Origin: Candidatus Poribacteria bacterium
Lineage (GTDB): Bacteria; Poribacteria; WGA-4E; WGA-3G
DNA: 64,000 nt
Assembly: GCA_965205025.1 (NCBI GenBank)
Contig: CBDBFU010000028.1
Span: forward strand, 64,001-128,000
Reading direction: 5' to 3'
Below are positions 38,992-64,000 of this stretch, in pieces. Both the position numbers and the translations under genes were made by a program. The notes below the pieces were generated by a model that had not been told where the DNA came from, made no database searches, and worked only from the letters and a program-made list of their open reading frames with translations. Each line of letters opens with the position of its first letter. Position 1 is the first letter of the stretch.

Positions 38992-41745
38992 ATGCGGAAA
39001 AATATTGTTGCTATGAGTAAACTCACAGATGAAGAATTGATTCGACACGTCCAGAATAGAGATCAGGATGCATTTTCTGAACTCATTACACGATGGACAC
39101 CACGGATAAAGGGTGTAGTCAGATCGAATTCCAGACAAAGACTCGACGCAGAAGAAATACACACCGACATCTGGATCGCTGTATGGCAAAATATAATTCA
39201 TCTTAGAAATATAGAGAGTTTCGGGGCATGGCTACATCGTATCGCCCATAACGCATGTAAACGATATTACACATTAACAAGACAATCTCGAAATGAAATC
39301 CCACATGAACATTCTGTGATTGTTGAACAGATGGAACAACAGGCTGCAGCACGATATAGAGAGAGACAACTGATGACAGATATAAAAGAAGCGGTACATC
39401 ATCTACCACAAAAGGTACGTTCAGTTGCTGAATTGTACTACTTAGAATCGTGGCACATCAAAGAAATTGCTGTCGAGTGTAATTTACCTATTGGAACTGT
39501 TAAGACCAAATTAAAGGAAATCCGAACACTTCTACGAAAGGAATTTGATGCGGAAGTCATAAAAGGAGCACCTATGACATCAAAAATAGAGCAACCGAAA
39601 AACACACCTACAAAGACTCACACAGGTAAAACGTCAAAAAACAGAATACCTGCGATTTTTAATGTTAATCCGAATGATCCGACTGGTGAAAGTTGGGGAG
39701 CACCTGAAGGGTTGTTTGCACGGTTCGGCAAAGGGGAGTCTAAAAGTGTTAAACTTTCTCCCGATGGGTCATATTTTGCAATGTCGACTGTATTCGGTCT
39801 GTGGTGGTATGATGTCTCTACAATGAAACCGATCTCTCTATGGGATCACATTGGAAGATTTGCCGTTAATATCGACTTTTCTCCAGATGGCAAGTGGGTT
39901 ATCCTAAGTACTGTAGCTCCATCTGTCAAGGTTTTGGAGGTCGAAACGGGTGAAACCGTGTTTGAAATAGATGTTCAGAAATCGTATGCTCGTTTCGCTT
40001 GTTCGTCAAATGGGAAATGGCTGGCGGTTGCTGATCAGGAAGGACCTATCAGGGTGTTAGATGTCCATACGGGGGAACAGATCGCTCAGATGGATTGTGG
40101 AGAACACAAGTGGAAAACGAATGACATTAAGCAACTTACTTTCACACCGGATGGAACGATGCTTGCTGCAATAGTTGTGCATCACAAGAAATACTCAGAA
40201 GACAATGAAGTTTTGAAACCAGATGACGAAGATACTCAAATCTATGTTTGGGATCCGGAAACAGGCAAGCCAATTGTGAAGTTTTCAGGAAAAACGTTTG
40301 AGATTTCACAGGACAGTCGTCTCATAGCGGGTGCATCAACTGATGGCACCTTGATCGATGATGAATTACTTTATAGCGATGTAGTTGTGTGGGATATCGC
40401 CACCAGTGAACGAATTACCTACTTCACGGAACATAGTAATTGGATAAACTCAATCGCTTTTTCACCTTGCGGAAAATACATCGCATCAGTTGACGAAATT
40501 TTACTGGTTTGGGAGATCGCTACAGGTACAGTACAGAAGCTAATTCCCAATGTGGAGGATCCATTCTATTCAAACACCGGACAACTATTCGCTATAGAAT
40601 ACCCCAATAAAACAGACGAAGCACCAGGATTTACCAACTATACTTTGGATGTGTGGAATGTTGAGACAAACGAAAAAACACTTGAGGTCTGTTCGGGTGT
40701 TGGGGGTTATTGGTTTGCCTACGACATAGCGAAAGCATACACAAACCAATTGATTGCGTTGCCTGCTGATGAAAGCATTACCAATAAAAAAGTTAAAGAC
40801 AAAGCTACAACTAATACTCCTATTTTAAATGTGGTGCATGAGCTCGATTTCTATGACCCTGGACCTGAGATTGACTGGATTGATGACCATACCCTTGTAG
40901 CACTTTCTTATGATGGATTAGAATTCTTTGATATTGATAAGGTCCGTCATAAAAACACACACTATTTTTATGATTTTGTTAGCGGTTTTGTTGTAATGCC
41001 TTCAGGTGAGATCCGGGTTATACTTTGTCATCATGAGGAGCGTTATAAAACGTGGCGTGTTCGGACACACGATAAACTTATCACAAAAATCCCTTTGCCA
41101 GATGAAATCTATGATAGGAATTGTGGTCCCGAATTTTCACCGATGGGGGATCGGATTGCGGTTGGATGTGAGATGGGGAATATCTATGTATGGAATATTG
41201 CCGATCCTGAAAATCCGTTAGTGCTGAAGGGACATAAAGCTGATAGTGGTGTATCAACGTTTTCTCCAGATGGACAAAGGCTGATAAGTTATGCTCGGGA
41301 TGAGTCTCGGCGTGTGTGGGATTTAGAGTCTTGTCAGGAAATCAATAGGTTGGAAATAGACAATGCTATTGATCCTGTTGGGCTTGTCTACTCTCCGTGT
41401 GGTAAATTCATTGCTGCTGAGTTGAGTACTGAGATCCGCATTTGGGATGCAGAAAAGCTGACATCGTTGCGTTCTATCCCGCAACCGAAACCGCATTACT
41501 GGCGTACAACTCCGCTTGTGTTCTCTCCTTGTAGTCAATTCATTGCTGGTACGACGTGGTGGGAGGAAGGTTATGAAAATTTGGCTGTCCGTGTCTGGGA
41601 TGTAGAGACGTGTGAACAGGTCGCAGATTTACGTGGACATGGTGATTTGTTGGTGAGTCTTGCCTTTTCTCCGAACGGCAAACTGTTGTCTGCTGGCTGT
41701 ATAGATAAAACAATTGTGTTGTGGGACTTAAAACCGTATCTATAG
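38992..41745 (+). CDS. ECF sigma factor fused to cytoplasmic WD40 propeller (WDLKPYL subfamily)
   Basis: Sigma region 2 (DAEEIHTDIW, FGAWLHRIAHN) and region 4 (IKEIA..PIGTVK), then WD repeats; no TM segment. Confidence 0.9.
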   Translation: MRKNIVAMSKLTDEELIRHVQNRDQDAFSELITRWTPRIKGVVRSNSRQRLDAEEIHTDIWIAVWQNIIHLRNIESFGAWLHRIAHNACKRYYTLTRQSRNEIPHEHSVIVEQMEQQAAARYRERQLMTDIKEAVHHLPQKVRSVAELYYLESWHIKEIAVECNLPIGTVKTKLKEIRTLLRKEFDAEVIKGAPMTSKIEQPKNTPTKTHTGKTSKNRIPAIFNVNPNDPTGESWGAPEGLFARFGKGESKSVKLSPDGSYFAMSTVFGLWWYDVSTMKPISLWDHIGRFAVNIDFSPDGKWVILSTVAPSVKVLEVETGETVFEIDVQKSYARFACSSNGKWLAVADQEGPIRVLDVHTGEQIAQMDCGEHKWKTNDIKQLTFTPDGTMLAAIVVHHKKYSEDNEVLKPDDEDTQIYVWDPETGKPIVKFSGKTFEISQDSRLIAGASTDGTLIDDELLYSDVVVWDIATSERITYFTEHSNWINSIAFSPCGKYIASVDEILLVWEIATGTVQKLIPNVEDPFYSNTGQLFAIEYPNKTDEAPGFTNYTLDVWNVETNEKTLEVCSGVGGYWFAYDIAKAYTNQLIALPADESITNKKVKDKATTNTPILNVVHELDFYDPGPEIDWIDDHTLVALSYDGLEFFDIDKVRHKNTHYFYDFVSGFVVMPSGEIRVILCHHEERYKTWRVRTHDKLITKIPLPDEIYDRNCGPEFSPMGDRIAVGCEMGNIYVWNIADPENPLVLKGHKADSGVSTFSPDGQRLISYARDESRRVWDLESCQEINRLEIDNAIDPVGLVYSPCGKFIAAELSTEIRIWDAEKLTSLRSIPQPKPHYWRTTPLVFSPCSQFIAGTTWWEEGYENLAVRVWDVETCEQVADLRGHGDLLVSLAFSPNGKLLSAGCIDKTIVLWDLKPYL

Positions 41746-41764
41746 AAAATAAGGAGGAAACATA

Positions 41765-43825
41765 ATGCAAAACCGAAAACCTACACAGTTGAATGTTGTC
41801 TCGGACGACCCTACAGGGAATACTTGGGCGTTGCCAAATGGGGCAATTGTGCGATTTGGAAAAGGTGATCTGGGTGGTGTTAAACTTTCCCTTGATAACA
41901 CGTATTTTGCCGTTGGCACTGGATCAGGTCTATGGTGGTATGATGTCCCTTCAATGATACCGATCTCACTATGGGAAACGGAAAAAGGATTGATTAATTC
42001 CATAGTTTTCTCTCCTGAGGGTAAGTGGATCGTTACAAACAATTGGAGTGGTACCCTTAAGGTGTTAGACATTCAAACTGGGAAGTGTGTTTATAAAATG
42101 GAAGATCAATGGGCATGGGACGGAATTGCCTTTTCGCCTAACGGAGGGCGAATTGCAATTGCAGGAGAAGACATTAAGGTGCTGGATATGCAGCGCGGCG
42201 TGTGCATTGCACAGATGGTTGAAGAGACACATGAAGATGTGTCAAGTCATATTGATCAACTTACCTTTTCGCCTAATGGACAATATGTTGCAGCTGAAGT
42301 TATAAATTCTGAGGTATATTCGGATGATGGCGAACTTCTTAATCCTGGAGCAGCGGGGAATCAAATTTATATCTGGGATTCAGGAACAGGAACACAGTTG
42401 GCAAAGTTCCCGAGTGAAAGATTTGCTTTTTCTCCTGATAGTCGTTTAGTAGCGTATGCAGCACCTGACGATAACGATCCTGACAGCGTTGACTGCTGCG
42501 TATCGGTATGGGATATAGCAGCAAAGGAACGGATTGCTCACTTTATAGGACATAGTGATTATATTAATGATATTATCTTTTCACCTTGCGGGAAGTTCAT
42601 CGTATCAAGTCGAAAAACGCTACGGGTATGGGATCTGGCAACGGGAAAACAGAAATCCGTTTTTTCAATGTCAACTGACGACGAGATCGAGTTTGTCCGT
42701 CCAAGACCGGTCTACTCACCAGAAGGTGTGCTACATGCAGAAGTGACTAACTATGACAAGCGGCTTATTGAAGTGTGGGATATAGAAAGCAACAAAAAAT
42801 TACAGATACTTGAGTGGCCCCATGGCATTGGAAGCGAGTGTTTTGCCTTATGTCCTGATTTGGTTATCATCTACGCATTATCTTCTGATTGCACGGATGG
42901 AAAAACGCACACATTTCCGGCACTTCGTGAGCCTCGTTTTCCGTGGCCGGAAGCGATGGCTGTTTGGTTGGATGATCAAACGCTTGCAAGCAGAAGCATT
43001 AGGCAAGGTATCGTTTTATGGGATATTCCGCAAAAACGGGTACGGGAAACATTGATGGATGACAAAAATTTTGACTATTTTACTATTTCGATTCACGGGA
43101 GTATATTGGCAATGGAAATTGGGGACACAATCAAAATATGGGATGCTGGTGTATCGCGTAAACCAATCGTGGAGTTTACCATACCGCCTGAGGAGTTGAT
43201 ACTTCACAGAGGCAGGTTCGCTCCTACAGGTGACCAGTTTGCCACTGCAAATAGAAATGGTGCATTCTATGTGTGGCATTTCGAATCACCGGAATATCCT
43301 ACAAAGTTTGCAGGTCATACAGACCGCGTTGATTCGCTTGTGTTTTCACCAGACGGCAAACAGCTGGTAAGTGGCTCATCAGATAAAACTGTCCGATTGT
43401 GGGATGTTGAAGCATGCGGGGAGATTGCTATATTGCCCATGGACGAACCTCGTATACCAATGGGAGTAACGTTTTCACCGTGTGGCAACCTAATTGCTGG
43501 TGGAATGGACAACAAAATCCGTTTGTGGTGTGCTAAGCAACTGACAATACTACACACAATACCGCAATCTGAGAATAACATGCGGACTTATGCTCTTGCT
43601 TTTTCACCTTGTGGAAAGTATCTGGCATCTGGCACTTGGTGGCAGCCAGGGATGGAGAAGATGGCTATTCGGATATGGGATGTTGCTACAGGTGAGAATA
43701 TTCATACATTTTGGGGGCATAACTCAGATGTGCAATCACTTGCCTTTTCACCAAACGGTACAATGCTGGCGAGTAGTGGTTTTGATGGTACAATTTTAGT
43801 GTGGGATTTGAAACCGTATCTATAG
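41765..43825 (+). CDS. Cytoplasmic WD40-repeat protein, paralog of the propeller of 38992
   Basis: AAGGAGG RBS; DPTGNTWALPNGAIVRFGKG; ends WDLKPYL. Confidence 0.9.
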   Translation: MQNRKPTQLNVVSDDPTGNTWALPNGAIVRFGKGDLGGVKLSLDNTYFAVGTGSGLWWYDVPSMIPISLWETEKGLINSIVFSPEGKWIVTNNWSGTLKVLDIQTGKCVYKMEDQWAWDGIAFSPNGGRIAIAGEDIKVLDMQRGVCIAQMVEETHEDVSSHIDQLTFSPNGQYVAAEVINSEVYSDDGELLNPGAAGNQIYIWDSGTGTQLAKFPSERFAFSPDSRLVAYAAPDDNDPDSVDCCVSVWDIAAKERIAHFIGHSDYINDIIFSPCGKFIVSSRKTLRVWDLATGKQKSVFSMSTDDEIEFVRPRPVYSPEGVLHAEVTNYDKRLIEVWDIESNKKLQILEWPHGIGSECFALCPDLVIIYALSSDCTDGKTHTFPALREPRFPWPEAMAVWLDDQTLASRSIRQGIVLWDIPQKRVRETLMDDKNFDYFTISIHGSILAMEIGDTIKIWDAGVSRKPIVEFTIPPEELILHRGRFAPTGDQFATANRNGAFYVWHFESPEYPTKFAGHTDRVDSLVFSPDGKQLVSGSSDKTVRLWDVEACGEIAILPMDEPRIPMGVTFSPCGNLIAGGMDNKIRLWCAKQLTILHTIPQSENNMRTYALAFSPCGKYLASGTWWQPGMEKMAIRIWDVATGENIHTFWGHNSDVQSLAFSPNGTMLASSGFDGTILVWDLKPYL

Positions 43826-43878
43826 TTGTTAGCCTTTACAACAAACAAATCGAGTGCCTCAAAAATTGTGGATGTTTT

Positions 43879-44040
43879 AACTCCACGATCAACTTATGGG
43901 ATGTTGATACTGGTGAAAAAATGAAAACACTTATTGGACATACAAGTCATGTGACAGGTGTCGAGTTTAGTCCTGATGGGAAAACTCTTGTAAGTGGTAG
44001 TAGAGATGGCGCTGTGTTTATCTGGGAAATAAACATCTAA
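43879..44040 (+). pseudogene. Orphan C-terminal WD40 blade fragment
   Basis: STINLWDVDTGEKMKTLIGHTSHV..SGSRDGAVFIWEINI*; same ending as gene 47271. Confidence 0.8.
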
Positions 44041-44069
44041 TGTTTCATTACTTGATATGTGCAATATTA
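44005..44069 (+). repeat. Left copy of 65-bp direct repeat (63/65 identical to 48168-48232)
   Basis: GATGGCGCTGTGTTTATMTGGGAAATAAACATCTAATGTTTYATTACTTGATATGTGCAATATTA. Confidence 0.9.
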
Positions 44070-44078
44070 AAAGTTTTT

Positions 44079-44125
44079 CTCAATTATGACGATTCTGCAA
44101 CTAATTCCTATTCATATCGCGTCAC
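44079..44125 (+). promoter_or_regulatory. Putative ECF-dependent promoter module
   Basis: CTCAATTATGAC-N5-TGCAAC-N18-CGTCAC; same spacing at 47078 and 62850. Confidence 0.7.
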
Positions 44126-44164
44126 CTATAAATGAAAACAGCAATTTGTTTATGGAGGGCTCTG

Positions 44165-46672
44165 ATGGAAAGAGACGACACACAATTGATTCATAGTATA
44201 TTGTCAGGTGATGAGGATGCTTTTAGTGAATTAGTTAGGAAACATGAAAAAAGTGTCCACGCACATGCATGGCGTAAAACAAAAGATTACCATATTGCAG
44301 AAGAAATAACACAAGATGCTTTTCTGCAAGCATATAAAAAACTTGCATCGCTGAGAAACCCAGATCAGTTCGGTGGATGGATATGTGTAATCACGGATCG
44401 CCTTTGCACAGCATGGTTACGCAAGAAAAAACTATATATGCAATCGTTGGAATCTGTCAGTAATGAGGTTCTGGAGAAAACAGCGTATACCTCCTATATT
44501 GCTGAACAACATGAAGAAGAAGTCGCTGAGCGTCGCCGTGAAATCATTGAAAGCCTTATGGCAATGCTGCCAGCGAATGAGCGCACAGCGATGGTTCTCT
44601 ATTACCTTGGAGAGATGTCTTGTGAAGAAGTTGGCAAGTATTTAGGTGTATCTACGAACACGGTGAAAAGTCGTCTTAGCCGTGCTCGAAATCGTTTAAA
44701 AGCTGTCAAATTTGATGCAAAACCCGATATCTTATACCAGGTTGAACACGATTCAATCCCCGCTAAAAGTAGAAAAAGCGGACGCATAATAGGAGTTAAA
44801 TCGATGCAGAACAATTTAGTACAAGAGCCGACACAATGGAACTTACCAGAAACTGCAAAAACCCGTCTCGGTAGAGGGAAAATACGTGAAATACAGTATT
44901 CTCCCGACGGAACAATTCTTGCAGTGGCAAGCAGTATCGGTATATGGCTCTATGATATGAAAACATATCAAGAAATTGCACTACTTACCGAACATCCAAG
45001 TCAAGTTTCCAGCGTGGCATTCAGTCCAGATGGATGCACTTTAGCAAGTGGAAGTATGGATGGAACCATTCATCTATGGGATATAAAAACAAGTTCGTAC
45101 AAAAACATCTTAGAATCCTCGGATAGAACCTTAAGTCCTTTTACTGTCAGGGCACCGAGTTTGGCATTTAGTCCAGATGGAAAAACGCTTGTATGTGGAT
45201 ATAAAAAAACTATCCATATTTTCAATGCAATCACAGGTGAACTTAAGAATTCACTGATTACAGATACTTCTGGAGTAATCACACACATCGAATTCAGTCC
45301 AGATAGTGAAACGATTATTTGTGGTAGTATATACGGTGAAATCTCGCTGTGGGATGCGATCACAGGAAAACACAAGAACACAATTCCAGAACCGAGTGAT
45401 TGTGAGCATGCCATTGCATTTAATACTATTGGGCAAACATACGCTGTGAGTAATGTTATATCGGAACAAGATTGTGGTATTTACATCAACGACTTAAATA
45501 CAGGTGAGCTCAAGAACAAACTCACTGGAGATTCAATGCGAGTTGACTGTTTGGCATTTAATCCCTCGGACAATACCATCGCTACAAGTACGGAGGAAGG
45601 AATCTATCTTTGGGATGCACACACTGGTAAACACAGATTCACACTCAATGACGACTCACCTGACATGGAATTTAGATCTGACTTGGAATTTAGTCCGGAT
45701 GGGAAAACACTCGCGAGTGAAAGATGTGATGGTATTATCCGCTTCTGGGATGCGCACACAGGTAATCCAAAATATGATACTTTCAATGGGCATAACGGGT
45801 TTACGGAATCTTTTGCTTTTACTTCAAATGGAAAGACTGTTACAATTGCTTATGGCTATGGTACAATCCGTGTATGGGACACTAACACAGGACACCTCAT
45901 TAAAACACACAATGAGTTTAGAGATCCGATGTTAAACTATGAAATAGAAAATTTAATGTGTATTCCTGATGGAAAAATATTGGCATGGGGAGCTGGTGGT
46001 GAATCGGGTGAGTCCCGCATGCAATTATGGGATACAGTCACAGGTGAACACATAAACATAAATCTACCAGCGAAATATGAATGGAAAAACCATAACTTGG
46101 AACTCAGTCCCGTCGGAAATACACTTGCAATTGTATTTGATGACAATCTGCTCAGATTATGCAATATGTTTACGGGTGAAGAAAAGTTTGTCCTATCCAA
46201 CCCTAACAAAGATTTTTTTGATATGGCATTTAGTCCTGATGGTAAAACCCTCGCAAGTGGGAGTGACGACAATACCGTCCGTCTTTGGGATATTGACATA
46301 GGTGAACACAAGAAAACACTTACAGGACATACAGATGGGGTGTGTGACTTAGCGTTCAGTCCTGATGGGAAAACACTTGCATGTGGAGGCGGTGAAATCA
46401 TCTTCTTATGGGATATAGATACAGGAGATAACACCAAGAAGTTAATAAAACCTACACATCGCGTGTGTGACTTAGCGTTCAGTCCAGATGGAAAAACGCT
46501 CGCAAGTGGAGGATTTGAGAGTAACATTAACTTGTGGGATCCACACACCGGTGAGCACATTAAAACATTGACAGGTCATACAGCCTGGGTAAGAAGTATT
46601 AAGTTCAGTCCAGATGGAAAATTTCTTGGAAGTAGAAGTGACGATGGGACTGTACTTATTTGGAATATATAG
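44165..46672 (+). CDS. ECF sigma factor fused to cytoplasmic WD40 propeller
   Basis: GGAGG RBS before ATG 44165 (ORF track start 44132); IAEEITQDAF, EEVGKYLGVSTNTVKSRLSRAR; WNLPETAKTRLGRG cap; WD repeats. Confidence 0.9.
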   Translation: MERDDTQLIHSILSGDEDAFSELVRKHEKSVHAHAWRKTKDYHIAEEITQDAFLQAYKKLASLRNPDQFGGWICVITDRLCTAWLRKKKLYMQSLESVSNEVLEKTAYTSYIAEQHEEEVAERRREIIESLMAMLPANERTAMVLYYLGEMSCEEVGKYLGVSTNTVKSRLSRARNRLKAVKFDAKPDILYQVEHDSIPAKSRKSGRIIGVKSMQNNLVQEPTQWNLPETAKTRLGRGKIREIQYSPDGTILAVASSIGIWLYDMKTYQEIALLTEHPSQVSSVAFSPDGCTLASGSMDGTIHLWDIKTSSYKNILESSDRTLSPFTVRAPSLAFSPDGKTLVCGYKKTIHIFNAITGELKNSLITDTSGVITHIEFSPDSETIICGSIYGEISLWDAITGKHKNTIPEPSDCEHAIAFNTIGQTYAVSNVISEQDCGIYINDLNTGELKNKLTGDSMRVDCLAFNPSDNTIATSTEEGIYLWDAHTGKHRFTLNDDSPDMEFRSDLEFSPDGKTLASERCDGIIRFWDAHTGNPKYDTFNGHNGFTESFAFTSNGKTVTIAYGYGTIRVWDTNTGHLIKTHNEFRDPMLNYEIENLMCIPDGKILAWGAGGESGESRMQLWDTVTGEHININLPAKYEWKNHNLELSPVGNTLAIVFDDNLLRLCNMFTGEEKFVLSNPNKDFFDMAFSPDGKTLASGSDDNTVRLWDIDIGEHKKTLTGHTDGVCDLAFSPDGKTLACGGGEIIFLWDIDTGDNTKKLIKPTHRVCDLAFSPDGKTLASGGFESNINLWDPHTGEHIKTLTGHTAWVRSIKFSPDGKFLGSRSDDGTVLIWNI

Positions 46673-46677
46673 AAACG

Positions 46678-46709
46678 TCTAAGAATATATGCACATATTC
46701 TTAGATTTT
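46678..46709 (+). terminator. Possible terminator hairpin
   Basis: TCTAAGAATAT-6nt-ATATTCTTAGA then TTTT, directly after the stop at 46672. Confidence 0.5.
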
Positions 46710-46831
46710 ACAATTATAGTGAAATCTGAAAATATGTGCACACTCCCTGGTAGATGCGGTTGCTAACCAATGCAGAGGATCACACGGGGAATCATGGCGA
46801 ATACCATACGCGTATTCACCAAAAGGCATTG

Positions 46832-52987: not shown

Positions 52988-55713
52988 ATGGTAGATGAAG
53001 ATGTTCAACTAATTAATAGAATTTTATCAGGTGATGACGACGCTTTTTCCACATTAGTTGAAAAGTATCAAAAAGGAATTCATGCTTTTGCATGGCGGAG
53101 GATTGGGGATTATCACTATGCTGAAGAAATTACTCAAGATACTTTCGTGCAAGTCTATAAAAACCTTTCGTCACTCAGAAATCCTTATCAGTTTGCGGGA
53201 TGGTTATATGTGATTGCTAATCGCCTATGTCTTAAGTGGTTACAAAAGAAAAAAATGAACGTTCAATCGTTAGAGGACACACCCATGGCAGAAATAGAAC
53301 AATATTCATATAACAAGTATATATTGGAAGAGCGAAAGACGAATGCCAGAGAAAGTGGTCTTGAGATAGTTAAGAAACTTCTGGATAAACTTCCTGAAAG
53401 TGAACAAACTGTCACAACCCTTTACTATTTAGGTGAAATGACAGCAAAAGAGATAAGTAAGTTCTTAGGCGTGTCGGTAAACACGATTAAGAGTAGACTT
53501 CGCCGAGCGCGCATTCGTTTACAGGAAGAAGAACTACCGTCTGAAGAAATATTGAACTCTGTTCAATTCTCTACCAATCTTAGTGAAAACATCCTACAGC
53601 GAGTTGTTGATATAAAACCGACTCCGATTCCAAGTGCAAAGCCAACACTTCCATGGGTAGTTTTCAGTGTTGCTACCTTTTTAGTTATGTTATTAGGTGT
53701 TTCCAATCAATACTTTGATCATTTCCAAAAACCTTATAGTTTTGACACACAATCTGAACAGACAGTTGAAATTACTGATGCCCATGTTTTTCTTGACACA
53801 GATGTAAGACCCTCTAATCTAAATCAAGTAGGACGAACTGATACTGATGGCAATAACAGTGGTATCAGTGTTCAAGATTCTGACTCGGTTATAGCGTCTG
53901 ATGAACAGGATTGGCACTTGCGAGGCTTACCCGTAGGTGTGAAAGCACGGATCGGTAAAGGCTTCATAACTGGAAGAATCTCGATTTCAACTGATGAAAA
54001 ACGTATGGCGATACCGTGTAGTATCGGTATTTGGATATATGACACAGAAACAGATAAAGTACTTGATCTAATCACAGGACATTCTAATTGGTATAGGAAC
54101 GTTGCGTTTAGTCCAGACGATATCCTGTTGGCGAGTGTGCGGGGGATAAAGTAGTACATATGTGGGATGCACGCACAGGTACTGAACTTTGGACCATGCA
54201 AGGTCATAAGGACATAACAAAGGACGTGGTATTCAGTCCGGATGGTTCACTATTAGCAAGTGGAAGTGAAGACGAAACCATCCGTCTATGGGATGTGCGA
54301 ACCGGCACACATATTAGGACGTTAATTGGACACATTAGAGGTGTAACAAGCATTGCATTCAGTTCAAACGGTGAAACGTTAGCGAGTGGCAGTGACGACA
54401 AAACTTTACGGTTGTGGGATGTGCATACAGGGGCATTAGTGCAGACAATCAGGGGATATGAAACTGCTGGAATAAATTCCGTTGCGTTTAGTCCGGATGG
54501 TAGGACAATTGCGAGTGCAAGTGATCACAATACCTTTCATCTATATGACGTACAGACAGGTAAATTACGCTACAAGTTGGTAGGAAATAATGGCTCAGAT
54601 GTCCATACGGGTATTGATTTTGTTAACTTTAGTCCAGATGGGTCAAAATTGGCAACTGCAAATCGAGATCGTACAATACGTCTGTGGGATGCACATACGG
54701 GGGATTTGATACAGGTGCTCAATGGACACAGGTCACATGTTCTCAGCGTTGTATTTAGTCAAGACGGTAAAACGTTGATAAGCAGTAGCAGAGACAACAC
54801 CGTGCGGTTGTGGGATGTAGATACTGGAGAAGAACTACGTAAGATGGTAGATCATATGCGGGGTTTACGTAATGTAGCGTTCAGTCCGGATGGGAAAACA
54901 CTTGCAAGCTGTACTTGGGGCAATAACGTTCGGTTATGGGATGTGCAAACGTGTTCACTGCTTCAGTCACTGGAGGGACATACCAAGTCTGTAACAAACG
55001 TTGCGTTCAGTCCGGATGGACAGACATTAGCGAGTAGCAGTTGGGACAATACCGTTCGTTTATGGGATATAAAAACGGGCATTTCGCTTCCACCTCTGGT
55101 TGGACATAATAAAGGGGTCATGAGCATTAACTTTAGTCCGAATAGCAATACTCTTGCAAGTGGCAATTATGATGGCACCATCTATTTGTGGGATACGCAA
55201 ACAGGTAAACGGAAGTATACGATGACAGCGAGAAATTGGGTCAATAGCGTTGCGTTCAGTCCAGATGGTTCTGTACTTGCAAGTGGTAGCTGGGACAATA
55301 CTGTGCGTACGTGGGATGTGAATACCGGCACATCGCTTTTGACATTGGATACAAATCAGAATGTCAATTCTGTCGTGTTTAGTCCGGACGGGAAGATGCT
55401 TGCATCTGGAGATCATAACAGCACCTTGCATCTATGGGACGCTTTATCGGGTGAACCGCTTTGGACGTTGGCGGAACAACGAGGAAGGATCAATAGTATA
55501 GATTTCAGTCCGAATGGAAAAATACTGGCAAGTGGAGGTGATGATGGCACTGTGCTGTTGTGTGATGTACTCACTGGCACTCCTTTTCGGACACTTAATA
55601 AACATCGAGGTCCTGTTGATAGCGTTATGTTCAGTCCGGATGGTAAAACATTGGCGAGTGCAAGTGGTTGCACCGTATTGCTGTGGGAAATTAGATCTGA
55701 TACGGTGAATTAG
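52988..55713 (+). CDS. ECF sigma - TM helix - WD40 fusion, split by a 1-nt frameshift near 54135-54145 (ORFs 52988..54154 and 54160..55713)
   Basis: Sigma2/sigma4, TM LPWVVFSVATFLVMLLGV, GLPVGVKARIGKG cap. The first blade continues in the -1 frame as GDKVVHMWD. Confidence 0.85.
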
Positions 55714-55748
55714 GTTTGTTGGACAGATTCGCCACTACTACTCATCTA

Positions 55749-57099: not shown

Positions 57100-57193
57100 T
57101 CAGAAATATTTAGTAGTGTAAACTGTTAATTTGCGTGCTAAGATTCACAAAATGTAATATTAAAAAACTTCAATTTGGAGAATATATTTTATT

Positions 57194-58034
57194 ATGAAAA
57201 TATTGAAAAGATGTATTATTTTTGTCCACATAACTATTTTGACATTACTAATGTCTATAAGTATATCTATATGTTCCTTTGCACAAGGAAAGGTAAATGT
57301 TAAAGGGGGACCTATTCCCGAAGTAGAATGGATGGTAAATGTCGCTGGAGAGTCCGTTAAACGAGGATCATTCTAATGTTGACACTTGGATTACCAAGTG
57401 GTATGGACCGGATGGTAATTATGAAAACAACGGAGGATTTATTAAGAGTGCCCCATTAGACCTAATTGAAGAAGGGACTGATGGAAAATTAGACCAACTT
57501 ATACTTTCCACAGTTACAGGATTGAATAAAACCAAATCTGTTGATATCAATTGGCCACTTAATGGCGGAAAACGAGATTGGACAGTCTTCGAAATTAACC
57601 CCGATAGTGCAAATAATATTTGGAAAGAAGGTGGCGGAGCCAATAATTTTGACACATACGCAATTTGTGTTATAGACGCACCGAAAAATATGAAATCTGT
57701 TATGTCTCCTGCTCATGATGATCATGCACAAATATGGATAAATGGTGAAAAATGGTATAATCATTCGCAATGGACTGGTGGAACGACACGAGTTAACTAC
57801 AATATTGAAGTTGAATTGAATAAGGGTGCAAATATACTCTTATTTAGGTGTGGAGAAGGAGGGGGTAGTGCATACCTAAACCTTCACTTTGACGACGCAA
57901 CTCACGATGCCGTTGATATTTACCCAGATCAGGCAGATGACAAAATTAGTTTCTTCAAAGAGATATTTGGAGCATTATCAATTGAACCAATTGATAAACT
58001 AACAACAATATGGGCAGATATTAAACGGAGATAA
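57194..58034 (+). CDS. Secreted beta-sandwich protein of unknown function with C-terminal motif, frameshifted (+1) near 57359
   Basis: Signal peptide. Removing one A gives AGESVNEDHSNVDTW. HDDHAQIWING and LNKGANILLFR; ends IEPIDKLTTIWADIKRR. Confidence 0.75.
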
Positions 58035-58145
58035 ACTATATTAACCTGAGTTTGAAATAGAATTCAATTTTAAAATATTGTGTATACTATGTGATAATTA
58101 TGATACCATTTATCATAAATATCCAACTTTAGAAGGAGGTTATTG

Positions 58146-59061
58146 ATGTTTGTCAACTTTAAACTCTTATTAAGCGTAATGCTACTACTCAGCTACGTTG
58201 TCCCTGTCTTTGCTTTTGAGCCTTCTGGCGGTGTTTTGTTGCTGGATGGTGAGGATGACTATGCCATACTCCCCTTTGCGGAACATGGAATATATTATCC
58301 CTGAAGGTACCCGTGAGTTTACGGTGGAGGCTTGGGTCTATCCAAAAGCTGAACCGAAGGAAAAAGATAATGACCTCATTCTTAGTCAGCAAGTTGTCTT
58401 CAGGATGATCGCAAGGGACAGGTGCAGACCTAAAAAGAATCAATTTTGCAGTACTCGGTATGCATATCTTTCAAGAGAAGGGGCTCACGGAATCGCAGGA
58501 ATAGATGATGCAATAGAGAAAGATCAATGGAACTATATAGCAATCATCTTCAAGAATAGCACACTTTATCATGTGACAAACGATCAAATTACTGGAGGCA
58601 GACAATTGGTTTTTGCAAATAGAGTGTCTTCAAATATTCGTAGACCTGAAGGGGTTGAAGCCTTTGTCGTAGGCGGATTTGATGAAGATAAGGAAATGTT
58701 TGATCGTCATGGACAATTGTTATTTCAAGTGAGTTGGTTTCAAGGGGCAATTGATGCTATAAGGTTTTCAAATATCGCCCGATATGATTTACCTAATGAG
58801 CCTGGAATCCATCCGTTTATTCCACCGCAACGCCTCTTTAGTGATCCGCACACGTTAGCATTTTGGGACTTCAATGACAAAGAAGGTGAAACGGTCTTTC
58901 AAGATGAATCGGGAAATGGAAATACGTTAGTTGGCATGAATGGTGCTATGACGATTGGTGGAGCTGGTGTTAATCTTATTCGTGATACCGATGATGGACT
59001 GGATGTTCGTCCAAACAACTCTTTAACAACGACATGGGGACAGATAAAATTGAGGGAATAG
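58146..59061 (+). CDS. Secreted LamG-like protein with C-terminal motif, frameshifted (+1) near 58289
   Basis: AGGAGG RBS; MFVNFKLLLSVMLLLSYVVPVFA signal; LLLDGEDDYA | FTVEAWVY, FQGAIDAIRFSNIARY, TLAFWDFN; ends SLTTTWGQIKLRE. Confidence 0.8.
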
Positions 59062-59314
59062 TTATACTAAAACGAAAACTAACGTGAGTTTGAAAAATAG
59101 TTAGACTTCCACATTTCCACTTAAAGTCCACCTGTTAAGGGGGACTTAGGGGTTAAAAGACAAATAAACTATTTAATTGTCAGATTTTTTGACTAAAATC
59201 TCCTATTTTCTACACAAACTGCGTAAGTCCTGATCATATTACATTCCAATTGCTGTGATAATACCGAATCAAATTACCTGAAAATCCACTATTCTAATTC
59301 ATATTAATCAATAA

Positions 59315-60133
59315 ATGAAGTATTTATTTTCTTTTATTTTATGCTTGATGCTTCTATCTCAAATTTCAATTTCTGGGACTTATGTTGATACATTTGAGGA
59401 TCGTAGATTGTCAGATTGGAAAGAGATTAACGTAAATGACTCTCGACCTGTCAACTGGAAAGTATCCAATGGAGAAGTCCGTGTAGAAAGTAAAGATAGC
59501 AATACTCGGATACTCGTTCTAAAAGATATAGAATGGACAAATTATGAGGTGGGAGTTGAGTGTGATGCCTCTTAAAAGACATGGACACGGACACATTGTT
59601 CTGGCTTCAAGAGTCACACCAACCAGAGCCATTGTTTTTACTATAGGCGATATATTCTGGAACGCTCCAATATCAATCGCTACAGGAACGATTCTCAACT
59701 TGGAAAATGGAGGATTAGAGGGAACTCCGTTGCAGTTCGCTAAGATACGGAATCTTCAAAATGGCAATAAGCAACAAGTAAAGATTGATGAACTATTACG
59801 GGTTGGGGTAGATCTGCCTTGTAATAATGTACATCCATATCCATTTCTAAAAACACATGAGTGGACACATCTAAAACTAATGGTCAGTGGCGACCTATTT
59901 ATGCTCTGGGTAAATGAGGAATTAGTTCTAAATACAAAATGTAATTTGCACATTTGGCATTTCTGAAAGGTGACCTTGTCACTGGAAGCATCGGTTTTGG
60001 CATAGCAGGATATACTGCTCTATTTGACAATTTTGTGGCTTCAGGTGAGGAAATACCCAACCAAGGTAGATTGTCCGTCCAACCACAAGAGAAACTTGGA
60101 CTCACATGGGGAAAATTAAAAGTGGGTCAATGA
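59315..60133 (+). CDS. Secreted protein (DUF1080/LamG-like fold) with C-terminal motif, two frameshifts (near 59551 and 59945)
   Basis: Signal peptide, TYVDTFED, WTNYEV|ELSVMPLKRHG, WTHLKL..LWVN | GSIGFGIAGYTALFDNFV..SVQPQEKLGLTWGKLKVGQ*. Confidence 0.75.
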
Positions 60134-60230
60134 TTATCTTTAATAACCTACCTATCTAATCTTACCTGACAGATATTATGTAGTCTATCAATCCAACGAT
60201 GGACTGGAATCCTATATTTGCCATTTATTT

Positions 60231-60382
60231 ATAGAAGGTGTCAACAGCAGAGAATCTCGTCACTTTCTGAGAACACACCACATGTGCTATAATGTTAGGT
60301 GTATTTAACAGGATAGCACTCAATTAACCAGCGGTGGACATATAGGTACGATCTGCCTTTGGGATTTGAAATAGTTTATTAG
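60231..60382 (+). pseudogene. Decayed 3' end of a WDLKPYL-type WD40 gene
   Basis: Aligns by eye to the last ~150 nt of gene 60510 (KVSTAENLVTF*EHTT..QDSTQLTSGGHIGTICLWDLK*). Confidence 0.7.
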
Positions 60383-60509
60383 TTCTGTACTTTACTCTCG
60401 CGAATCATCTATAGCATTTTAATCCTACATGTATTGCCAAACTCCAAAAGTCAATTTCGCATAACATATCTGAGTGCAAAGTTACTAAGACAATTTCCTT
60501 ATGTCATAA

Positions 60510-62507
60510 ATGGACAAAATATTGAAAAACAAAACTACTTCCAATCTTAGTTCACTTGATAACAGAGATGTGACAACTTGGGCACTTCCTGAAGGTGCAC
60601 ATGCGAGATTAGGACGCGGACGTGCCAACGATATGGCATTTTCACCTAACGAACAATATTTGGTTATCGGCACAGCAATTGGACTTTGGTTATATGATCT
60701 ACCGACTTTATCTCCAATTGCTCTTTGGGATACCGAACGTGGAATGATTAGTTCTGTTATAGTTTCACCAGATAATCAACGGATTGTCACACATACTTTT
60801 TCCGAATCCATAAAGATATGGGATATTCGAGAAGGCATCTGTATAACTCAGATCGAGAAGCAAAACGAACGAGATATAACCAATCCTATCTTTTCTCAAG
60901 ACGGAGAGTACATTGCTACAATTAGTAATGAAAGAAATTGGAAAATTTACTTCTGGTGTTCTCATACAGGTAGGAAACTGAAAGAAACAGTAATTAAGCC
61001 GCCTCGTGAAGTTTATCCTATCTGTTTTTCACTTGATTTGAATTTGTTAGCAGGTAAGACCAATGATCCAGATAATGTGGACAGAAATAACGGGAATGAT
61101 TCAATTATAATTTGGAATGTAAATTCTGGAGAACAAATTACCATCATTGAGAATTATCCAGAACCAGTGCGAAGGTTCTGCTTTTCTCCATGCGGACAAT
61201 ACCTTGCAGCAGGTAATTACCATGGTAAAATACATGTATGGGACATCACACGCGAACAACTGGAAGCTACTTATTCTGAATATGGAAACGCACAGATGTA
61301 TCCATATTATCTTACAGATGGTGAATTAATTGCTTGTGCTGTTTCTGATCGCGTAGCTGAGATTTGGAATGTAAGAAAGCATGAGAAAATAAATGAATTT
61401 GCGCATCGTGGTAATACTGGAATAGTTAGTTTTTCGGACAGTGGTACACAAATGGCACATGCAAGTCCGAGCGAAATCAAAATCTGGAGGAAAAGTAATA
61501 ATTCTGATATTCATACTGTTTCATCTCTCCATGGACATCTCACAACGATGGACACAATAGTTTTTTCAAAGAACGAGAAGACGCTTGCTGCCGGATTTTG
61601 GAATGACAATGTCCTTCTATGGGATCTTGCCAGTAGACGGTCATACCGACCAGACAGTGAAAAACTACCTGGGACTTCGCATAATGTTTATAGATCTCCT
61701 AACGATACTATTATTACTACCAACAGATTAAAAGAAAAAATAATTGTATATGAGCTTGGTAAGAATGAACCGATTGCAGAATTGGTTGGTCCAAAAGAGG
61801 GTTTAGGTCGCGCCCAAGCATACACTTCCACAGGAGCAAGGATAGCAAATGTCGACAGAGACGATAACATACATATCTGGGAACGATTATCAACCTTATA
61901 TGACAGGTCAAAAACCGAAACTTGGAAAAAGATCGCTACGATCCATAATGATGAAGAATTTACTTACGGATTAAGGTTTAGTCCGACTGGAATGGCGTTT
62001 AGTCCAGATGGAAAACAGCTCGCAACTATATCAAGATCACAGGATTGTAAAGCCTGTTTGTGGAATGTTGATACAGGGATACAGATTGCTGAGCTTCCTA
62101 TAACCCCACCATCAAGAAGGGGAATGTATCGTGATTATGATACTGGGATAGCATTTTCGCCAGATGGCAATATCATCGCAGGTGGAATGTGGCACGGGAT
62201 TGTCCTGTGGAATGCAATAGATGGAAAATCCATTAAATACATCCCACACTCGGAGGAATATCAACGACCTATCACATTATGCTTTTCGCCGTGCGGACAG
62301 TATTTGGCTTCTGGGGCATGGTGGACACCAGATTTACAAAAGGTGTCTATCCGAATATGGAAGGTTCCAACAGGTGAGAATCTCACCACTTTTTGGGGAC
62401 ATACCACAGATGTCCAATGTTTTGCATTTTCACAGGACAGCACTCTATTAGCAAGTGGTGGACACGATGGTACGATTTACCTGTGGGATCTGAAACCTTA
62501 TTTATAG
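60510..62507 (+). CDS. Cytoplasmic WD40-repeat protein (WDLKPYL subfamily)
   Basis: WALPEGAHARLGRG cap; SPCGQYLASGAWW; ends WDLKPYL. Confidence 0.9.
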   Translation: MDKILKNKTTSNLSSLDNRDVTTWALPEGAHARLGRGRANDMAFSPNEQYLVIGTAIGLWLYDLPTLSPIALWDTERGMISSVIVSPDNQRIVTHTFSESIKIWDIREGICITQIEKQNERDITNPIFSQDGEYIATISNERNWKIYFWCSHTGRKLKETVIKPPREVYPICFSLDLNLLAGKTNDPDNVDRNNGNDSIIIWNVNSGEQITIIENYPEPVRRFCFSPCGQYLAAGNYHGKIHVWDITREQLEATYSEYGNAQMYPYYLTDGELIACAVSDRVAEIWNVRKHEKINEFAHRGNTGIVSFSDSGTQMAHASPSEIKIWRKSNNSDIHTVSSLHGHLTTMDTIVFSKNEKTLAAGFWNDNVLLWDLASRRSYRPDSEKLPGTSHNVYRSPNDTIITTNRLKEKIIVYELGKNEPIAELVGPKEGLGRAQAYTSTGARIANVDRDDNIHIWERLSTLYDRSKTETWKKIATIHNDEEFTYGLRFSPTGMAFSPDGKQLATISRSQDCKACLWNVDTGIQIAELPITPPSRRGMYRDYDTGIAFSPDGNIIAGGMWHGIVLWNAIDGKSIKYIPHSEEYQRPITLCFSPCGQYLASGAWWTPDLQKVSIRIWKVPTGENLTTFWGHTTDVQCFAFSQDSTLLASGGHDGTIYLWDLKPYL

Positions 62508-62532
62508 AATTTAGAGAACATCTCTAATAATT

Positions 62533-62766
62533 CTATAGTTTGGACAATTAGTTTGGACAATTTCTGAGAGGTGCTTCACCTTTTTTCAAAGGGTTTCTGG
62601 TTTTTCGCCACGTGTCTCACGCTAATCCAACTCTAAGAAAAATAAACTCGGATGGACTAAAGCGTAGCCCCAGCGGGGCGAAATGTGTGTAGAAACGTCA
62701 TATCTCCTCAAGATCCAAGCCCCAGAGGGGCGAAATGTATATCGCTTCAAACTGTCCAAATTATAG
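62533..62766. mobile_element. MITE-like element carrying a REP pair
   Basis: TIRs CTATAGTTTGGACA / TGTCCAAATTATAG (1 mismatch); internal AGCCCCAGMGGGGCGAAATGT twice (62666, 62718). Confidence 0.7.
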
Positions 62767-62849
62767 TAATAATGTAGTACTTCCATTTTTTTCTAGATAA
62801 TCTTGAAAGGAGAATCTGAAATTGTTAGGAGAAAATGGATCCGTAACTC

Positions 62850-62896
62850 CTCAATTATGACACTCATGCAACCCACCAATCACAAAAAAGCGTCAC
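62850..62896 (+). promoter_or_regulatory. Putative ECF-dependent promoter module
   Basis: CTCAATTATGAC-N5-TGCAAC-N18-CGTCAC. Confidence 0.7.
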
Positions 62897-62930
62897 CCAA
62901 TTGTAACACCTATATTATGCCGAGGTAAAA

Positions 62931-64000
62931 ATGGAAGTAAACTATTCTAAACTAATCCAAAAGATCTTAGCTGAAGATGAAACTGCTTTTACAGTATTAG
63001 TCCACAAATTCCAAAAAGGGATTCACGCACTCGCATGGAAGAAAATAGGGGATTATCAGATAGCCGAAGAGATAACTCAAGTTTTACCATGGGGTATTGT
63101 TGCCACATCTACAATTATTATGATTCTGTTATTTGGCATAGGTAATCAACTCATCAGTCCATATCAGAACCCATATAATGTTGAAGCACAATCTGAGTCG
63201 TCAATTGAGATTGTTGATGCTACAAGAGTACAAGATATAATACCGCAGCAAAAAGTACAAAATCGAAATGGAAAGAATATTCAGGAAGGTCAAAATCAGA
63301 ATGAAGGTTTATCAGAAAAAGGAGAAAACATGCAGAACGACTCCATAGATGATACTATGCAATGGTACTTACCCAAGAATGCAATTGCGCGTTTTGGTAA
63401 GGGCGGTATAAGAGATATATTGTATTCTTCCGATGGATCAACGTTAGCTGTCGCAGGAAAAATTGGTCTTTGGCTTTACGATACATCCACTTATGAAGCT
63501 ATCGACATGATACCGTCTGAATCTACTGAATTTAATTGCTTAGCTTACAGTGTTGATGGAAATTTCTTTGCAGCAGGCGATAGGCAAGGAACTATACATT
63601 TATTAAATAAAAAGACTGGAGAGAAAATCGAGATAAATGCTCATACAAGTTGGGTGAATGGACTATCCTTCAATCCTAAGGGTACAATCCTGGCAAGTGC
63701 TGGTCGGGATTTTCTTCTTCAACTTTGGGATGTTAACACCGGTAAACAAATAAAAACTCTAAAAGAAACAAACTCAGAAATTCAATGTATTACCTTTAGT
63801 CCAGATGGCAACACTTTGGCAAGTGGAGAGGGTAATGTTATTCGTTTCTTCGATATCCATAGTGGCAATGAAAAACCCCTTAATGCTCACACCAGCTGGG
63901 TTGATGATTTAGCTTACAGTCCTGATGGAAAATCAATACTAAGCATCAGTGATGATAACCAAATTTTTCTTTGGGATGTCAATACACTTCAAAAGAAGAT
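62931..64000 (+). CDS. Truncated-sigma - TM - WD40 fusion protein (runs off the window; absent from the ORF track)
   Basis: GAGG RBS; MEVNYSKLIQKILAEDETAF..IAEEITQ joined directly to VLPWGIVATSTIIMILLFGIG, then WYLPKNAIARFGKG and WD repeats. Confidence 0.88.
   Translation, partial: MEVNYSKLIQKILAEDETAFTVLVHKFQKGIHALAWKKIGDYQIAEEITQVLPWGIVATSTIIMILLFGIGNQLISPYQNPYNVEAQSESSIEIVDATRVQDIIPQQKVQNRNGKNIQEGQNQNEGLSEKGENMQNDSIDDTMQWYLPKNAIARFGKGGIRDILYSSDGSTLAVAGKIGLWLYDTSTYEAIDMIPSESTEFNCLAYSVDGNFFAAGDRQGTIHLLNKKTGEKIEINAHTSWVNGLSFNPKGTILASAGRDFLLQLWDVNTGKQIKTLKETNSEIQCITFSPDGNTLASGEGNVIRFFDIHSGNEKPLNAHTSWVDDLAYSPDGKSILSISDDNQIFLWDVNTLQKK

Follow-up and report, generated by a model that had tools for sequence, protein, structure and literature searches.

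Conserved Shine-Dalgarno sequences and start codons at the sigma-propeller junction of ECF sigma-WD40 fusion genes in Candidatus Poribacteria: candidate internal translation starts

Background

Does an ECF sigma factor gene that continues in a single reading frame into a WD40 propeller yield one protein or two? The usual view of ECF sigma factors that carry a C-terminal extension is that each is a one-component regulator and a single protein. The genes that raise the question belong to a metagenome-assembled genome (MAG) of an uncultivated, sponge-associated Candidatus Poribacteria, which carries about 50 ECF sigma fusion genes. In this genus the C-terminal module of such fusions is mostly a WD40 propeller in the same reading frame as the sigma domain; some genes of the sigA type have an FtsZ-like, DnaE-like or helical domain instead. 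An original prediction, made from the letters of one stretch of this genome, held that an internal ribosome-binding site and ATG lie at the joint of several fusions, so that each gene might make both a sigma-propeller fusion and a free propeller, and it named fossils of gene fusion as the alternative. We have compared about 100-110 of the roughly 1,500 paralogs of the genus. The counts given below run over orthologs that share descent and are not independent events.

Results

Sigma-propeller genes in the window

The window is the whole stretch of 64,000 nucleotides that was analyzed. Its features relevant here are as follows.

38992..41745, + strand: sigA-type ECF sigma-WD40 fusion gene, 917 aa, without TM helix (open reading frame; Pfam Sigma70_r2 and WD40 propeller families)
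38992..39573, + strand: sigma domain of the 38992 gene, 194 aa (alignment A1)
39564..39568, + strand: internal Shine-Dalgarno (SD) AGGAG, 5 nt 5' of ATG 39574 (read directly)
39574..41745, + strand: predicted sigma-less propeller product, 723 aa, starting at ATG 39574 (conservation of the ATG in orthologs)
41752..43825, + strand: stand-alone cytoplasmic propeller paralog, 686 aa, with RBS AGGAGG at 41752-41757 and 7 nt to ATG 41765
44132..46672, + strand: sigB-type ECF sigma-WD40 fusion, 846 aa, without TM helix (open reading frame; Pfam)
44791..44806, + strand: internal AGGAG (44791-44795), 8-nt spacer and ATG 44804 (MQNNL), 13 codons before the cap (read directly)
52988..55713, + strand: sigB-TM-WD40 fusion interrupted in a G run by a frameshift of 1 nt (open reading frames 52988-54154 and 54160-55713)
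60510..62507, + strand: second stand-alone cytoplasmic propeller paralog, 665 aa, with no SD scored before its ATG
62931..64000, + strand: copy of a sigB-TM-WD40 fusion with the sigma domain deleted, 736 aa, extending past the window
63081..63149, + strand: TM helix of the 62931 gene, about aa 51-73 (hydropathy maximum 1.84)
63320..63332, + strand: internal AGGAG (63320-63324), 5-nt spacer and ATG 63330 (MQNDS), 3' of the TM helix (read directly)

ECF (group 4) sigma factors were taken as those with sigma-70 regions 2 and 4 and without region 3. Pfam Sigma70_r2 matches the 38992 gene at 40.1 bits (cut-off 24); Sigma70_r2, r4_2 and Sigma70_ECF are matched in 52988, and PF04542 and PF08281 in relatives. 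In the test for TM helices most sigB fusions, 52988 and 62931 among them, have a hydropathy maximum of 1.8-2.6; for 38992 and 44132 it is below 0. A segment, ..REALEHFQISPNLTDNIM.., is conserved between the sigma domain and the TM helix of the TM-type fusions; no Pfam match to it is among those listed for 52988. An Rfam search of positions 38000-64000 returned no match.

The description of these genes as sigma-WD40 fusions is correct for 38992 and 44132. It had to be amended for the pair 52988/54160, which is one frameshifted fusion, and dropped for 62931, where an in-frame deletion of 501 nt has removed sigma residues 51 to ~218 relative to the tandem neighbour C28:129239-131942. Since 62931 has no sigma domain, it is not a sigma/propeller pair. 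The gene family is highly dynamic, with tandem copies, one in-frame deletion and one frameshift.

The AGGAG motifs that are followed after 5-8 nt by an in-frame ATG (39564/39574, 44791/44804 and 63320/63330) can be read directly from the sequence as predicted. The fourth fusion, 52988, has no internal SD/ATG at its junction. ATG 39574 lies in the peptide ..VIKGAP-MTSK, in frame with the open reading frame and 42 codons before the propeller cap motif; ATG 44804 (..IIGVKS-MQNNL) and ATG 63330 (..SEKGEN-MQNDS) are likewise in frame, the latter also 13 codons before the cap. The candidate internal start of 62931 does fall 3' of the TM helix, and the stand-alone paralog at 41765 does begin alike, with AGGAGG, 7 nt and ATG. 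This paralog's N-terminus, MQNRKPTQLNVV.., and the linker in the 38992 fusion are homologous.

Rarity and strength of the junction sites

The 3' end of the 16S rRNA of the MAG carries the canonical CCTCC anti-SD, and the in-frame start codons at the junction sites are preceded, at 4-10 nt, by an SD able to pair with it. Such an arrangement is rare within genes: genome-wide, AGGAG stands 4-10 nt 5' of 0.38% of 21,622 internal in-frame ATGs and of 15.7% of the first ATGs in 3,319 long open reading frames. Duplexes with the genome's 16S tail average -9.8 kcal/mol at the junction ATGs (n=52, all <= -6.2), as compared with -4.4 for other in-frame ATGs of the same open reading frames (n=415) and -5.4 for first ATGs of the genome (n=1,498). 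The SD at 39564 gives -8.5 kcal/mol, against about -4.1 for the weak SD at the sigma start of 38992, and the internal SD is the stronger in 28/28 orthologs of this gene (-9.9 vs -4.1 kcal/mol). The duplex energy at 63320 is -9.3. Most sigB orthologs have only AAAGGA or ACAGGA as their SD (-3.3 to -6.6), which is no stronger than at an average gene start. Predicted mRNA folding around the junction ATG shows no dip at the ATG itself; structure is lower at +20 to +70.

The trait is confined to subfamilies. Only 6 of the 24 sigma-propeller fusions in the MAG have a strong SD (<= -7) with an in-frame ATG near the cap; a value of -6.2 is reached by 10, an in-frame ATG near the cap is lacking in 11, and 14 have no strong junction site. 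Among the TM-type fusions sampled (n=28), 7 lack an in-frame ATG near the cap.

Conservation at the nucleotide level

The ortholog set of 38992 comprises 30 loci from other species, with a mean pairwise amino acid identity of 0.65 and a minimum of 0.50. The junction codon is ATG in 29 of them, the exception (L067) having AAG. The Gly at -3 is encoded by GGA in 29/30 and the Arg at -4 by AGA in 20/20; genome-wide these codons account for 35% and 26% of usage, respectively. Of 17 conserved Gly columns, only one other is equally uniform (28/30 GGA), and none of the 18 other conserved Arg columns is monomorphic. The linker 3' of the junction Met is variable.

Twenty further sigA fusions, whose partners include an FtsZ-like domain and other propeller subfamilies, all carry the SD and ATG (20/20), the ATG lying 27 codons (17 loci) or 29 codons (3 loci) after the GTVKT motif. 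The SD is read in different codon registers (AGG AGG GGA, AGA GGA GAA, GAA GGA GGT, CAA GGA GAT) and the encoded peptides differ accordingly: IRRGT, ERGEV, IEGGI, QQGDI, EGVRI and IRRKT are found.

For the sigB type we used the 'MQN/MEN' subfamily, to which 44132, 62931 and their orthologs belong; the 27 sequences compared have a mean identity of 0.49. A start-competent codon is present in 26/27 of these (ATG 19, GTG 7). Where the start position is Val the codon is always GTG (7/7), in contrast to the mixed usage of 19 other Val columns, and the Gly at -4 is GGA in 23/23, with 8 control Gly columns mixed. The orthologs of 44132 proper (L009-L014) have ATG (5) or GTG (1) and keep the GGA codon, mostly within the weaker AAAGGA. 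In the 62931 group the SD and ATG are kept in L096 and L098, L096 having GAGG over the peptide AEVEN; the ATG is shifted in L097. The check that accompanied the original prediction, whether the SD and start codon are conserved beyond amino acid constraint, thus had a positive result in orthologs of all three genes.

The sigma domain and the fusion product

Mean column identity is 80% in the sigma domain (A1), with many invariant residues, vs 55% in the propeller (A2). Sigma and propeller share a single frame free of stops in 30/30 orthologs of 38992 and in the 20/20 further sigA fusions. Since the sigma part is the better conserved and one frame is preserved in the 30 orthologs, the fusion product appears to be kept as well. 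A structure prediction of the sigma domain (A1) with the propeller (A2) gave a score of 0.00, which carries no weight either way.

Stand-alone propellers and sigma-less derivatives

In stand-alone genes for cytoplasmic propellers, translation begins at the homologous MEN/MQN, and the start is equipped with AGGAG. Compared with these genes, the sigB junction clearly corresponds to their 5' leader, now translated, together with their start. Some derivatives have lost most of the sigma domain. One (G009) retains 46 aa of sigma4 followed by a 697-aa frame from the junction ATG; another, in the MAG itself (C26), retains 22 sigma4 codons and AGGAG-N8-ATG, and its 671-aa frame has no other in-frame ATG. 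A further sigma-less locus (G011:C238) has a short propeller frame of 566 aa. The frameshift of a split ortholog in G013 lies 3' of the junction and hence gives no information on the internal start. Searches beyond the genus gave no member of the sigA subfamily, the matches in 4 genomes of 2 other families having only ~30% identity. A search of sequencing runs matched no RNA run, and the best DNA runs contained <=0.44 of the words.

Discussion

Internal initiation and its alternatives

The comparison of orthologs shows that the junction SD and ATG (sometimes GTG) are under selection at the nucleotide level. Since a ribosome-binding site and a start codon are kept at the joint, each fusion gene with a junction site probably yields both the fusion and a free propeller, and we consider it reasonably probable that these sites are functional internal translation starts. 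Ribosomes would initiate at the junction too, so that a full-length sigma-propeller and a sigma-less propeller come from one gene. The idea of two proteins per gene is thereby supported where the nucleotides are conserved; it does not carry over to the wider family, in which most TM-type fusions have no such site.

The main competing view is that the sites are neutral fossils, an SD and ATG left from recent fusions, or refreshed by gene conversion from stand-alone paralogs, and unused. The clear descent of the sigB junction from the leader and start of stand-alone propeller genes speaks for it, as do the dynamics of the family (tandem copies, in-frame deletion, frameshift) and the absence of the site from many paralogs. 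However, the very orthologs that keep the SD and start codons have mixed synonymous sites in their control Gly, Arg and Val columns, and in the sigA fusions the SD is kept across codon registers, with unrelated partners and a variable flanking linker. Because this conservation exceeds amino acid constraint, two proteins are favoured over a mere fossil. As an account of origin the fossil alternative holds for sigB, where a cytoplasmic propeller gene that once stood alone would have brought its ribosome-binding site and start codon into the fusion with a sigma gene; as a full account we judge it improbable. Nucleotide-level conservation of an element placed exactly on the domain boundary would also fit some other role of the RNA, either as an anti-SD-binding pause that aids co-translational folding or as the ribosome-binding site of a propeller-only transcript from an internal promoter, and we give such roles a small chance. 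A pause has no need of a start codon 5-9 nt downstream, yet ATG or GTG is found there in 29/30, 20/20 and 26/27 sequences. An internal transcript would still produce the free propeller from the same start, so only the mechanism would differ.

Selection could also act on the protein, for example on an (R/K)-G-x-x-M motif that serves as a hinge or protease site, the codon pattern being incidental. The Gly and Met are indeed conserved as residues, and proteolysis can activate sigma factors with extensions, according to a review (PMC8999054). The peptide nevertheless changes, both among the sigA fusions and in L096 (AEVEN), while the purine-rich SD stays, and neither the GGA codon for Gly (29/30 and 23/23) nor the constant GTG for start-position Val is expected from such a motif; we regard it as quite improbable. 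It is more doubtful still that the propeller is the only real product, with the sigma part an untranslated or decaying leader that is open by chance. Sigma-less derivatives exist and the SD of the sigma start is weak, as this would predict, but no part of the gene is better conserved than the sigma domain, which is in frame without stops throughout both sigA sets.

Under internal initiation, the free propeller would be made in excess in the 38992 group, because its internal SD far exceeds the SD of the sigma start in strength. It would most likely compete with, or act in trans on, the propeller-regulated sigma factor, and so resemble a co-expressed anti-sigma factor or decoy. In the TM-type genes the free propeller would be cytoplasmic and the fused one outside the membrane, so that a simple decoy role does not fit there.

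Relation to known systems

ECF57 sigma factors have a C-terminal WD40-like extension, for example in Singulisphaera acidiphila, that is thought to regulate the sigma factor, and a conserved pair of cysteines for which a link between sigma2 and sigma4 has been proposed (PMC8999054). The present genes had been likened to this group, and the label fits by architecture only. They share the ECF core (sigma2 and sigma4) and an extension of WD40-type repeats, in ECF57 thought to be regulatory via protein interaction (same source), with WD40 and many beta-propeller Pfam families matched 3' of the sigma domain. This pair is not seen in the 38992 group: A1 (28 sigA domains) has only one invariant Cys (C89), and the sigma4 Cys of 38992 is not conserved there. 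Unlike ECF57, these genes are found in Poribacteria, in ~50 copies per genome, many with a TM helix between sigma and propeller. The passages of PMC8999054 on ECF57 that we consulted describe no internal start site, and our literature searches turned up no report of internal starts in fusions of ECF sigma factors.

Fusions of sigma and anti-sigma factors with TM segments are represented by IutY of ECF243 and by ECF48, ECF52 and ECF53, for which release by proteolysis is expected (PMC8999054). Both 52988 and the parent of 62931 share with these the order sigma, TM helix, extracytoplasmic domain; here, in contrast, the outer domain is a WD40 propeller, and one subfamily carries a candidate internal start past the TM helix. 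In-frame internal initiation in bacteria gives N-terminally truncated proteoforms, arcB being a prominent case (bioRxiv 10.1101/520783). The junction sites are similar, in that an in-frame start with its own SD in a signalling gene would yield the C-terminal domain alone. They differ from known cases of this kind, to which CheA-S, IF2-beta and ClpB-80 also belong, since the host is a sigma fusion, the site recurs in dozens of paralogs and with several partner domains, and the evidence is comparative only.

In the classical sigma/anti-sigma operon, adjacent or coupled genes are carried on one mRNA and the ratio of the products is set by two ribosome-binding sites. The fusion genes would likewise co-express sigma and regulator from one mRNA; unlike the operon they lack an intervening stop codon and hence also make the two parts as a covalent fusion. 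We tentatively suggest, as a possibility we would rate below even, that these genes are the one-ORF equivalent of such an operon in dozens of paralogs of sponge symbionts. A weak ribosome-binding site would give sigma-X and a stronger, selected internal one an excess of free X; through competition or co-assembly with tethered X, the free form would set how active the sigma factor is. X would be the propeller or, in sister genes, the FtsZ-like or DnaE-like domain, and the TM-type isoforms would lie on opposite sides of the membrane. If so, ECF sigma factors would be regulated here in a way not described before. If a selected internal start does yield a free regulatory domain, the stoichiometry and logic of the circuit change, and annotation of such genes misses one product.

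Some further readings were rejected. An internal ECF-type promoter was suggested by GGAAC in sigB sites; by inspection this motif is absent from sigA sites, and a transcript starting downstream would leave the conserved ATG unexplained. SD-stimulated frameshifting was set aside because the A-run of some sigB sites and the TGA overlapping some ATGs are not conserved. An argument from essentiality fails, since the sigma-FtsZ-like and sigma-DnaE-like genes are second copies, with canonical ftsZ and dnaE elsewhere.

One database protein (P0080) is annotated by its source with the junction Met as its start. Large WD40 repeat expansions have long been noted in Poribacteria, and many of the genes in the expansion seen here are wired to sigma factors.

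Sigma-propeller genes of the window and their relatives

The window covers C28:64001-128000. The genome of contig C28 is 5.66 Mb in size, with 38% GC, and Candidatus Poribacteria MAGs are its closest named relatives. Between 34 and 64 kb the + strand of the window carries a series of WD40 propeller genes, four of which open with an ECF sigma domain. The genes are named here by their window start positions.

38992-41745, +, sigA-type sigma-propeller gene, 917 aa, TM helix absent
44132-46672, +, sigB-type sigma-propeller gene, 846 aa, TM helix absent
52988-54154 plus 54160-55713, +, one sigB-TM-propeller gene, divided into two ORFs by a frameshift of 1 nt within a G run
62931 onward, +, propeller gene with sigma deletion, 736 aa in the contig
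41765 and 60510, +, stand-alone propellers without signal peptide
34200, 48855 and 50913, +, stand-alone propellers with signal peptide

The frameshift in the 52988 gene, one nucleotide in a GGGGG run (54141-54160), may be a sequencing error or mark a recent pseudogene. The 62931 gene had been described as a sigma-WD40 fusion, but most of its sigma domain is gone. It is a tandem copy of the neighbouring gene at C28:129239-131942 (901 aa), and a 501-nt in-frame deletion took out sigma residues 51 to about 218, so that the TM helix, linker and propeller now follow just 50 sigma residues. The flanks of the deletion are 96% and 87% identical between the two copies (62931-63100 compared with C28:129239-130100). 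Directly upstream of the 38992 fusion is a 694-aa ORF (36072-38156) whose translation, judged by eye, opens with a trypsin-like protease region and contains many TPR-like repeats.

The genome has 48 sigB-type and 5 sigA-type long sigma fusions, and 88 ORFs carry the propeller 'cap' motif, [WY]-x-LP-x-GA-x-ARxGKG. Most sigB fusions are ordered sigma, short conserved segment, TM helix, linker, and propeller or other domain. Stand-alone cap-motif members mostly have a signal peptide at the N-terminus, its end reading ..A-Q-D-Y-T-Q-W, and the cytoplasmic MEN/MQN types are the smaller group. Matches to the 62931-region query were found in 39 of 39 genomes of the genus searched, and to the other two fusion queries in 24/24 and 38/39, at about 50 sigB-type matches per genome. 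One relative with a smaller genome (G009, 4.3 Mb) has 3-6 matches to the fusion queries, compared with 20-60 in other members. Relatives in the databases are annotated as single proteins of ~900 aa, either 'sigma-70 family' or hypothetical. Outside the window, sigA-type ECF sigma domains are also found in frame with an FtsZ/tubulin GTPase domain (C5:24030-25286, 419-aa frame; Pfam Tubulin, 140 bits), of which 412-aa and 1435-aa versions exist in other genus genomes, and with a DnaE-like DNA polymerase III alpha (C4:126724-130038, 1105 aa; Pfam DNA_pol3_alpha, 239 bits). The canonical ftsZ (C20:184364-184846) and dnaE (C2:129437-130210) are separate genes.

Internal SD/ATG sites and their conservation

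Direct reading confirmed the three noted pairs of AGGAG (SD) and ATG at the sigma/propeller junction, at 39564/39574, 44791/44804 and 63320/63330, all in frame. The stand-alone 41765 gene begins in the same manner, as noted, with AGGAGG 7 nt 5' of its ATG. The 3' end of the genome's 16S rRNA has the canonical anti-SD. In 3,319 long ORFs, 15.7% of first ATGs have AGGAG 4-10 nt before them, as against only 0.38% of 21,622 internal in-frame ATGs; given this low internal background, three such sites at one domain boundary in 4 genes are far beyond chance.

Whether SD and ATG are conserved beyond amino-acid constraint was assessed in 30 orthologs of 38992 from other species (pairwise identity mean 0.65, minimum 0.50). 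These are related by descent, and such counts overstate the number of independent events. Sigma and propeller share one frame in all 30 loci. ATG stands at the junction in 29 (L067 has AAG), the glycine three codons 5' of it is GGA in 29, and the codon before that is AGA in 20 of 20 Arg cases and ends in A in all loci but one (TAT). The linker of ~25 residues that follows the junction Met is variable. Genome codon usage is 35% for GGA and 26% for AGA. Of the 17 conserved Gly columns, one besides the SD column is equally uniform (GGA in 28/30) and the rest mix all four codons; of the 19 conserved Arg columns, the SD column alone is monomorphic. Synonymous sites are therefore saturated elsewhere and frozen in the SD, and for 38992 the predicted conservation holds. 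The sigma start of this group has a weak but conserved AGGA (-4.1); by duplex energy (predicted pairing of the mRNA SD with the 16S rRNA tail, kcal/mol) the junction SD is the stronger in 28 of 28. The leader 5' of the sigma start (38960-38991) is kept across species (aaactggctcAGGAAtttgtttATG), and its SD is weak.

For 44132 and 62931 the same expectation was borne out to a moderate degree. The 44132 orthologs (L009-L014) and a second TM-less group (L015-L021) all have a start codon behind GGA, with the cap 13 or 23 codons further on. Of 28 TM-type fusions chosen by likeness to the 62931 linker and propeller, 21 belong with it to a 'G-x-x-x-[M/V]-[QEK]-N-N' subfamily; in the other seven ('DYTQW' type), which resemble signal-peptide propellers, no start or SD was found near the cap. 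An alignment of 27 sequences of the subfamily (44132 and 62931 relatives, mean identity 0.49) has ATG in 19, GTG in 7 and CAA in 1 at the start position. Valine there is GTG in 7/7, and each of 19 other Val columns mixes codons. At -4, Gly is encoded by GGA in 23/23, with GAG-G in two other sequences and 8 control Gly columns mixed. In the orthologs, however, the SD does not match the strength seen in this genome: it is mostly AAAGGA (-6.2 to -6.6), and some loci reach no more than -3.3 to -4.3.

Another 20 sigA-type fusions, drawn from 15 genomes, were selected solely on the sigma4 match; in these the sigma is joined to an FtsZ-like domain or to a propeller of another subfamily. Every one has an in-frame ATG, which lies 27 (17 loci) or 29 (3 loci) codons past the GTVKT motif. 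The SD before it differs in codon register and encoded peptide (AGG AGG GGA, RRG; AGA GGA GAA, RGE; GAA GGA GGT, EGG; CAA GGA GAT, QGD; AGG AGG AAA, RRK), and three sigma plus helical-domain genes have the same pattern. Because the SD persists across registers and peptides, this points to selection acting on the RNA rather than the peptide. Mean duplex energy is -9.8 kcal/mol at junction ATGs (n=52, all <= -6.2), -4.4 at other in-frame ATGs of the same ORFs (n=415) and -5.4 at the genome's first ATGs (n=1,498).

Origin and probable role of the junction

Cytoplasmic propellers encoded as separate genes have their start codon at the homologous MEN/MQN, together with AGGAG. A propeller ORF on contig C26 of this genome has upstream a remnant of the last ~22 sigma4 codons and AGGAG-N8-ATG. 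Since stops lie further up and the remnant offers no in-frame ATG other than the junction ATG, its intact 671-aa frame can start only there. In a G009 derivative the sigma is reduced to 46 residues, and a 697-aa frame runs from the junction ATG. As both sigma-less frames begin there, junction sites appear competent to serve as sole starts. To judge from these sequences, the sigB junction is the 5' leader of a former stand-alone gene, now read as linker. The suggestion that the sites are fossils of gene fusion thus holds in part, for the origin of the sigB junction, but as a whole account it is unlikely: the SD and start codon are under selection, which is strong in the 38992 group and moderate among the relatives of 44132 and 62931.

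Several observations bear against a functional start or limit its scope. Predicted mRNA structure does not fall clearly at the junction ATG. In TM-type genes an internal start would leave the short isoform cytoplasmic and the fused propeller external, which counts against function. Of this genome's 24 sigma-propeller fusions, 11 lack an in-frame ATG near the cap, six have one with duplex energy <= -7, and 10 reach -6.2; a strong SD accompanies 6/17 in-frame ATGs near the cap vs 7/68 out-of-frame ATGs. The trait is restricted to subfamilies of the fusions. The most likely reading, which we hold with moderate confidence, is a functional internal start that would yield a sigma-less propeller alongside the fusion, as originally proposed; this propeller might have a regulatory role.

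ECF57 sigma factors have WD40-like repeats in C-terminal extensions, with possible regulation by protein interaction, and sigma/anti-sigma fusions containing TM segments have been described (PMC8999054). The main text of the ECF classification paper (PMC7826278) mentions neither Poribacteria nor WD40. Our literature searches found no published account of internal starts in ECF fusions; C-terminal proteoforms from internal in-frame starts are known in E. coli (10.1101/520783).

A second SD-like site occurs genome-wide in sigB fusions at the end of sigma4, where ..L-K-K-E-E-x-M-I-R-E.. is encoded by AAG GAG GAA NNN ATG, giving AGGAGG, 5 nt and ATG at the sigma/TM-segment boundary. Among 22 paralogs with ATG or GTG at this position, about 15 carry the site, several C2 genes being examples; other paralogs have I, L, V or F, so this site may be amino-acid driven.
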